The notes under the pieces are model-generated. The model had not been told where the DNA came from and did no database searches. It was given only the letters and a program-made list of their open reading frames with translations. The translations under genes and the position numbers were made by a program. Below are positions 57,335 to 57,801 of a DNA stretch of 64,000 bases, piece by piece (positions within the stretch are counted from its first letter, which is position 1; every line of letters begins with the position of its first letter). Source of the DNA: Escherichia coli (lineage in GTDB: Bacteria > Pseudomonadota > Gammaproteobacteria > Enterobacterales > Enterobacteriaceae); NCBI RefSeq assembly GCF_013122565.1, contig NZ_CP053258.1; one strand, written 5' to 3'.

Positions 57335-57801
57335 TCACGATTGCATATTTTTAGTGAAGATTACTTTATCCTCACCAACATCATAGTAATTGCGTATTAT
57401 CGCCTCATTGATAAAGCCCTGTTTTGTATAAAATGCGCGGGCGGCACTAAAATCGATATGGCTAGAGGTCTCTACTAAAAGTAGTCTAGCCTGTTTAATT
57501 GTGAGTTTTTTTCTATTTCGTTGATCAGCAGATGTCCCACTCCCTGGCGCTGATGGGAAGGACTGATCCAGAGCAATAATAAATTCCAGACATCATTTGT
57601 CATCACTTCAGGAGCACAATAGGCAATCCCTGCCAGTCCTAAGTGTTCTGCACTAAACCATAAATCGGCAGATTGACCTGAGAAATAATGTGTTAGTGTT
57701 TTTTGTACATGATGAAGGCCATCTTGATCAAATTGTCCACTGGCAAGCAGCATATCCAGTAATGGTTCAACATCTGAAGGTTTGACTGGTCGTATAAACA
57801 T
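57335..57801 (-). pseudogene. GNAT-family acetyltransferase interrupted by a frameshift in an A7 homopolymer
   Basis: N-terminal 108-aa ORF carries GNAT motif A (QRQGVGHLL) and stops at 57475; the C-terminal part (IKQARLLLVETSSHIDFSAARAFYTKQGFINEAIIRNYYDVGEDKV...) continues in another frame to 57335; frames join if the T7 run at 57506-57512 (plus strand) were T8. Confidence 0.75.

Follow-up and report, generated by a model that had tools for sequence, protein, structure and literature searches.

A split GNAT acetyltransferase gene beside yddH in one Escherichia coli lineage: very probably a recent pseudogene

On the minus strand of an Escherichia coli chromosome, the coding sequence of a GNAT acetyltransferase is divided between two reading frames that meet at a run of seven A residues. 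The question raised by this locus is whether the gene has really been broken, whether one base was dropped in sequencing or assembly, or whether some form of slippage still joins the two parts. The window, the whole stretch of DNA that was analysed, is 64,000 nucleotides long, and the frame-split gene is confirmed in it with all coordinates rechecked against the sequence. The zero-frame ORF (57475..57801, minus strand) has 108 codons from the ATG at 57801-57799 to the TAG at 57477-57475, with a Shine-Dalgarno-like AAGGA (57807..57811, minus strand, read from the sequence) 5 nt 5' of the ATG. It encodes GNAT residues 1-98, which resemble the N-terminal two-thirds of such an enzyme, and then 10 out-of-frame residues, NSQLNRLDYF, which have no match to anything. 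Between 57594 and the TGA at 57337-57335 the -1 frame has no stop, and its translation past the A run is KKLTIKQARLLLVETSSHIDFSAARAFYTKQGFINEAIIRNYYDVGEDKVIFTKNMQS. The C-terminal half of the GNAT domain lies in this frame (57335..57505, minus strand), reading LTIKQARLLLVETSS, further on FYTKQGF and finally DKVIFTKNMQS before the stop. The original prediction, that a GNAT N-terminus with motif A ends at 57475 and that the rest of the domain continues in another frame down to 57335, is borne out on both counts, the QRQGVG of motif A at residues 84-89 and the TAG being present as described. The junction of the two frames, at the A7 tract that appears as T7 on the plus strand (57506..57512), is verified at the predicted position. 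One base restored at this tract gives the continuous acetyltransferase of about 155 aa that had been foreseen, a 155-aa protein with E99K, and position 99 is variable in the family. The GC content of the gene is 40%, and a promoter and terminator scan around it returned nothing above shuffle expectation. The zero-frame 108-aa product is catalogued at NCBI as WP_171459402.1 / QJU24278.1.

The frame-joined 155-aa protein matches the three Pfam models used in the family test, Acetyltransf_7 (PF13508) at 3.4e-10, Acetyltransf_1 (PF00583) at 3.2e-8 and Acetyltransf_10 (PF13673) at 1.2e-6, and the matches cross the junction, covering residues 33-132 of the joined protein. Homologues that align with it end to end are 154-156 aa long and occur in Salmonella, Enterobacter, Phytobacter, Kluyvera, Citrobacter, Serratia, Aeromonas and more distant bacteria. 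Because the joined protein both matches Pfam across the junction and aligns end to end with homologues, the break inside one GNAT domain is no chance pattern. The acetyl-CoA pyrophosphate-binding loop of motif A, Q/R-x-x-G-x-G/A, is QRQGVG in this protein (residues 84-89), with G89 invariant and G87 conserved in at least 90% of 36 homologues, and the C-terminal half is strongly conserved among the members of the 154-156-aa family. The proposed search for full-length orthologues thus succeeds, both halves sharing one frame in the genomes of the nearest E. coli relatives and across many Enterobacterales. Judged by these alignments, the intact gene belongs to a conserved small single-domain GNAT subfamily to which no substrate is assigned. 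An orthologue of RimI was considered and is ruled out by the NCBIfam rimI score of the protein, 40 bits against a cut-off of 86.

The syntenic anchor for comparison with other E. coli genomes is yddH, a gene of the flavin reductase family (56699..57268, plus strand) that is convergent with the GNAT gene. In LHM10-1, PT62, wlxctx60 and 2014C-3075 an intact 468-nt gene for a 155-aa protein lies at this position by yddH, and all four read GAAAAAGAGCTC at the site, that is GAA AAA GAG CTC (E97 K98 E99 L100), or A5-G-A-G. The exact intact 155-aa protein is found on 603 contigs. The window reads GAAAAAAACTC and differs from the intact allele in two ways, a deleted base and a G>A substitution. The idea behind the suggested comparison of homopolymer lengths, that related genomes might carry one more unit of the tract, does not hold, as the intact allele is A5-G-A-G and not A8. 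Since intact relatives read A5-G-A-G, the ancestral sequence was no A8 run from which a unit dropped out, and the lesion is a deletion plus a substitution, with no change in homopolymer length. The ancestral state is fixed as GAGCTC by three distinct allele classes of E. coli. A search for sibling alleles found on record neither an E99 nor a K99 form of the intact allele with the window's other residues. With no intermediate allele on record, the order of the two mutational steps is not fixed; we infer that the simplest path is a synonymous GAG>GAA change and then loss of the G, other orders being equally short. Outside the lesion the window copy diverges from intact alleles at about the genome-wide level of 1.5-2%, and M76L is its one private non-synonymous change, where at least 90% of the family have M. 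On account of this low divergence and the single private replacement, the pseudogene looks young.

In the proposed sequence of events, the ancestral GAA AAA GAG CTC would have lost one base and exchanged one G for A to give GAAAAAAACTC. The GNAT frame is now left after K98, just past motif A in what we take from the general GNAT fold to be helix alpha3, and translation ends 10 codons further on. In the resulting 108-aa product the C-terminal third of the fold is missing, and motif B with it (the strand and helix assignments follow the same general fold). The lost region holds ten residues that are invariant in the 36-member alignment: L107, V110, T112, S113, R122, F124, Y125, E133, K146 and K151. 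With these family-invariant residues gone, the product should have lost acetyltransferase activity. The complete fold, with its C-terminal strands and motif B, is not encoded as a single polypeptide in the window, where the last 57 residues exist solely in the -1 frame. As far as the reading frames can tell, the window copy is a pseudogene of the GNAT gene and not a functional member, because the zero frame stops at codon 109 and the C-terminal 57 residues have no start codon.

The distribution of the gene in E. coli was obtained with a 141-nt probe across the lesion site against 5,426 complete genomes, a RefSeq set in which the source genome of the window is absent and whose best match to the window is 98.1% (PT62, MB53 and LP5-1). 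The GNAT gene segment is present in 435 of the 5,426 genomes and absent from about 92%. An intact type, in the 95-99% identity band, comprises 15 genomes, all 15 annotated with an intact GNAT gene. A degraded type at 93.6% identity comprises 419 genomes, about 96% of the 435, among them the phylogroup B2 strains Nissle 1917, ATCC 25922 and LF82; relative to the intact allele its 141-nt segment lacks 1 base, and the annotation shows no GNAT gene there. The window allele itself is found in 0 of the 5,426 complete genomes (best identity 96.4%), and the 108-aa product is on record only in one NCBI chromosome (4.82 Mb) and one Logan contig. In the Nissle copy (L002, 4063-4530), the sole degraded copy read base by base, TGG>TGA gives W72stop, A5 is shortened to A4, and the conserved S21 and G22 are substituted. 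The other 418 degraded-type genomes have probe alignment statistics identical to those of Nissle over the 141 nt and probably carry the same allele. The remnant of this type appears in databases as a 71-aa 'hypothetical protein/acetyltransferase', WP_000470661.1. At least two independent frame losses, those of the window and of Nissle, have thus occurred in one 9-nt A-rich stretch. Absence from most E. coli genomes together with degradation in 419 of them suggests that the gene is dispensable. An apparent third frameshift near the site, in a database protein of 101 aa (P0066) that ends in ALIKQDRKSVV, was rejected, its tail being the Illumina adapter AGATCGGAAGAGCGTCGTGTAGGG at the end of a contig. 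The source of this entry is L008, 800-835 (ENA ERZ784389, NODE_4297), and it is a database artefact that imitates a frameshift.

The order of genes in the whole window is ydeP ... gadBC ... ddp ... fdnGHI ... narUZYWV-yddE-nhoA-yddH-[GNAT]-island-yncG-ansP, and at the locus itself narZYWV-yddE-nhoA-yddH-[GNAT]-AT-rich island-yncG-ansP. The island between the GNAT gene and yncG (57900-61100) spans about 3.5 kb at about 30% GC and holds about 5 orphan ORFs of 250, 186, 140, 108 and about 90 aa. The island ORFs examined have no Pfam match on record, and neither NCBIfam (250 and 186 aa) nor PADLOC (250, 186, 140 and 108 aa) returned a match. PADLOC also gave no match for the GNAT protein, so that NCBIfam and PADLOC give no sign that the gene belongs to a toxin-antitoxin or defence system. 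At the position of the island, Nissle has a VgrG / M35-peptidase / ISAs1 module and 2014C-3075 an Rhs core / ISEc1 module. The island also contains another frameshift polymorphism linked to a homopolymer, at 59384-59390 in the minus-strand ORF 59116..59676. The 186-aa ORF is intact here in the window (T7) and in LHM10-1, PT62 has one extra T at 59384 and a split gene, and wlxctx60 is likewise annotated with two fragments. PT62, the closest complete relative, also has IS1 and IS3 insertions that break TonB-dependent receptor and leucine-rich-repeat genes (window 10864-12253 and about 43960); in the window the TonB-dependent receptor gene (10887..13259) is uninterrupted and the leucine-rich-repeat protein genes (43578..46159) are intact. 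Elsewhere in the window, fdnG (37894-40941, minus strand) appears as ORFs of 803 aa and 195 aa parted by an in-frame TGA, with the Rfam element SECIS_3 (84 bits) at the junction (40301-40359), the only element returned by an Rfam scan of the whole window. The split in fdnG reflects the well-established selenocysteine recoding of formate dehydrogenase-N; it is no pseudogene. Repeated breakage of the GNAT gene and its absence from many strains fit a dispensable gene beside a low-GC variable island.

The explanation that we hold to be very probable is a real and recent loss-of-function frameshift in an accessory GNAT gene, confined to one lineage, which makes the window copy an ordinary pseudogene. 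Among the options left by the original prediction, the real pseudogene is favoured by the intact syntenic orthologues and by the reproduction of A7 in Logan. A sequencing or assembly error, in which the true gene is intact and 1 base was dropped at the A-rich stretch, is improbable. Homopolymers of at least 7 nt are notorious for indel errors in long-read assemblies, and the allele is known from just one chromosome in the databases and one contig derived from reads, which may share an isolate; the complete RefSeq genomes searched do not include its own. However, run SRR11451224, assembled separately in Logan by another assembler (a 62-kb contig), is 100% identical to the window over the 5,163 bp retrieved, A7 included. 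The match excludes an artefact of the assembler and leaves one specific to the culture or at the level of the reads, as the isolate and the reads may be shared with the deposited genome. A homopolymer miscall, moreover, would not yield the G>A substitution that is also present; an artefact would need two real substitutions and an error, or the loss of a G outside a homopolymer. The alignment with PT62, about 60 kb long, has indels at 31 positions. Apart from the GNAT site and 59384 these lie between genes, and the GNAT lesion is the only one that breaks a coding sequence of the window's copy. The 20 other homopolymers of at least 7 nt in the window show 0 gene-breaking length differences in the window's copy relative to PT62. 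A contingency switch, in which slipped-strand mispairing would toggle the gene between ON at A8 and OFF at A7, has very little probability. Such a tract is more mutable than unique sequence, a +1 change restores the frame, and in the Nissle allele this A run is also altered in length (A5>A4), all of which would suit a switch. Yet the relatives lack a long tract, reading A5-G-A-G or A4-G-A-G, the 435 gene-bearing genomes contain no series of tract lengths, and the gene is decaying or absent in most strains. Nor is an A8 form of the strain's own allele on record, a search of 153 billion gene positions for the window allele at A8 with its other residues unchanged having found none. For a contingency locus in mismatch-repair-proficient E. 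coli, seven A make a short tract. The slippage-prone switch of the original prediction is thus left unsupported.

Expression from the broken gene can be imagined in two further ways, both of which we set below the ordinary pseudogene. The lesion makes the heptamer A_AAA_AAC (57505..57511, minus strand), which fits the X_XXY_YYZ pattern in the phase of the zero frame (GAA|AAA|AAC) and whose -1 continuation is the frame with the rest of the enzyme. The heptamer arose by chance, and a trace of read-through into the C-terminal frame is possible. A leaky or recoded gene, with lowered expression and a little full-length enzyme made either by a ribosomal -1 slip (N99) or by RNA polymerase slippage to A8 (K99), is nevertheless quite unlikely. 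In its favour are the exact phase of the heptamer and the correct frame at -1, and also the variability of position 99 in the family, so that an N99 or K99 product should fold. The same motif is that of IS1, and A_AA.A_AA.C is listed among those with over 0.1% frameshifting in E. coli when no stimulator is present, although it is also called low-efficiency there (Sharma et al., PMC4066793). An RNA hairpin of -13.4 kcal/mol (57460..57491, minus strand) follows the heptamer, and a window-specific synonymous TCC>TCT change makes its stem perfect. However, the hairpin starts 13 nt past the heptamer, beyond the spacing of about 5-9 nt usual for stimulators, and is weak against shuffles (z = -2.0, with 7 of 200 shuffles folding as well); as a candidate downstream frameshift stimulator it is marginal and poorly spaced. 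No upstream Shine-Dalgarno-like stimulator at a suitable distance can be read from the sequence. The bacterial runs for which efficient transcriptional slippage is on record are of 9 A or T and not of 7 (PMC5009743). The two-frame arrangement is not conserved, with a single ORF in 35 of 35 aligned homologues and in 15 of 15 intact-type E. coli genomes, and is known from a single strain; selection for recoding is therefore not indicated. A 'savior-type' attenuator, in which about 0.1-1% of full-length enzyme would come from ribosomal or A7>A8 slippage and the reduced dose would have been selected, we consider very unlikely. Two halves made separately and assembling into an active GNAT enzyme have next to no probability. 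Both halves are still open and have few extra substitutions, but the C-terminal frame has no ribosome-binding site and no usable start codon (there is no ATG, GTG or TTG from the TGA at 57595 to an ATG 3 codons before its own stop), and no homologue is organised in two pieces. The split enzyme is rejected for want of a start codon in the C-terminal frame.

The ordinary pseudogene, our preferred reading, is an ordinary kind of event, and its significance beyond annotation quality is very little. RefSeq and GenBank list WP_171459402.1 as an ordinary 'GNAT family N-acetyltransferase', and a flag as a frameshifted pseudogene is due. The in-phase heptamer would be a handy natural example on which to study frameshift leakage that is not programmed; a biological use of the heptamer is not indicated.

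Comparison with known systems places the locus within this picture. The entry PDB 2r7h, a 'putative D-alanine N-acetyltransferase of GNAT family', has a similar small single-domain architecture and aligns over residues 2-150 (1e-14), across the frameshift point, although its sequence kinship with the GNAT gene is distant. RimI (5isv, 2cnm) is more distant kin than 2r7h, and the RimI models score below their cut-offs. The insA-insB' (insAB') site of IS1 has an identical heptamer in an identical phase, and there also the -1 frame holds the catalytic C-terminal part, with low efficiency expected when strong stimulators are lacking (PMC4066793). The arrangement in IS1 is conserved and functional, whereas that of the window is an unconserved, accidental by-product of mutation in one strain. 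The intact E. coli orthologue (WP_000470660.1 / WP_040063150.1 / WP_123000022.1; 155 aa, 'GNAT family N-acetyltransferase') occupies the locus immediately past the 3' end of yddH, in convergent orientation, and shares about 98% DNA identity with the window, with start, stop and length alike apart from 1 base. It is a single ORF with GAAAAAGAGCTC, in contrast to the GAAAAAAACTC and M76L of the window. The Nissle-type degraded allele belongs to this gene and this locus and is likewise inactivated, in Nissle with a one-base loss in the same A run. Its lesions, as read in Nissle, are independent of that of the window and older, and the type occurs in 419 complete genomes, in contrast to the one strain that has the window allele.
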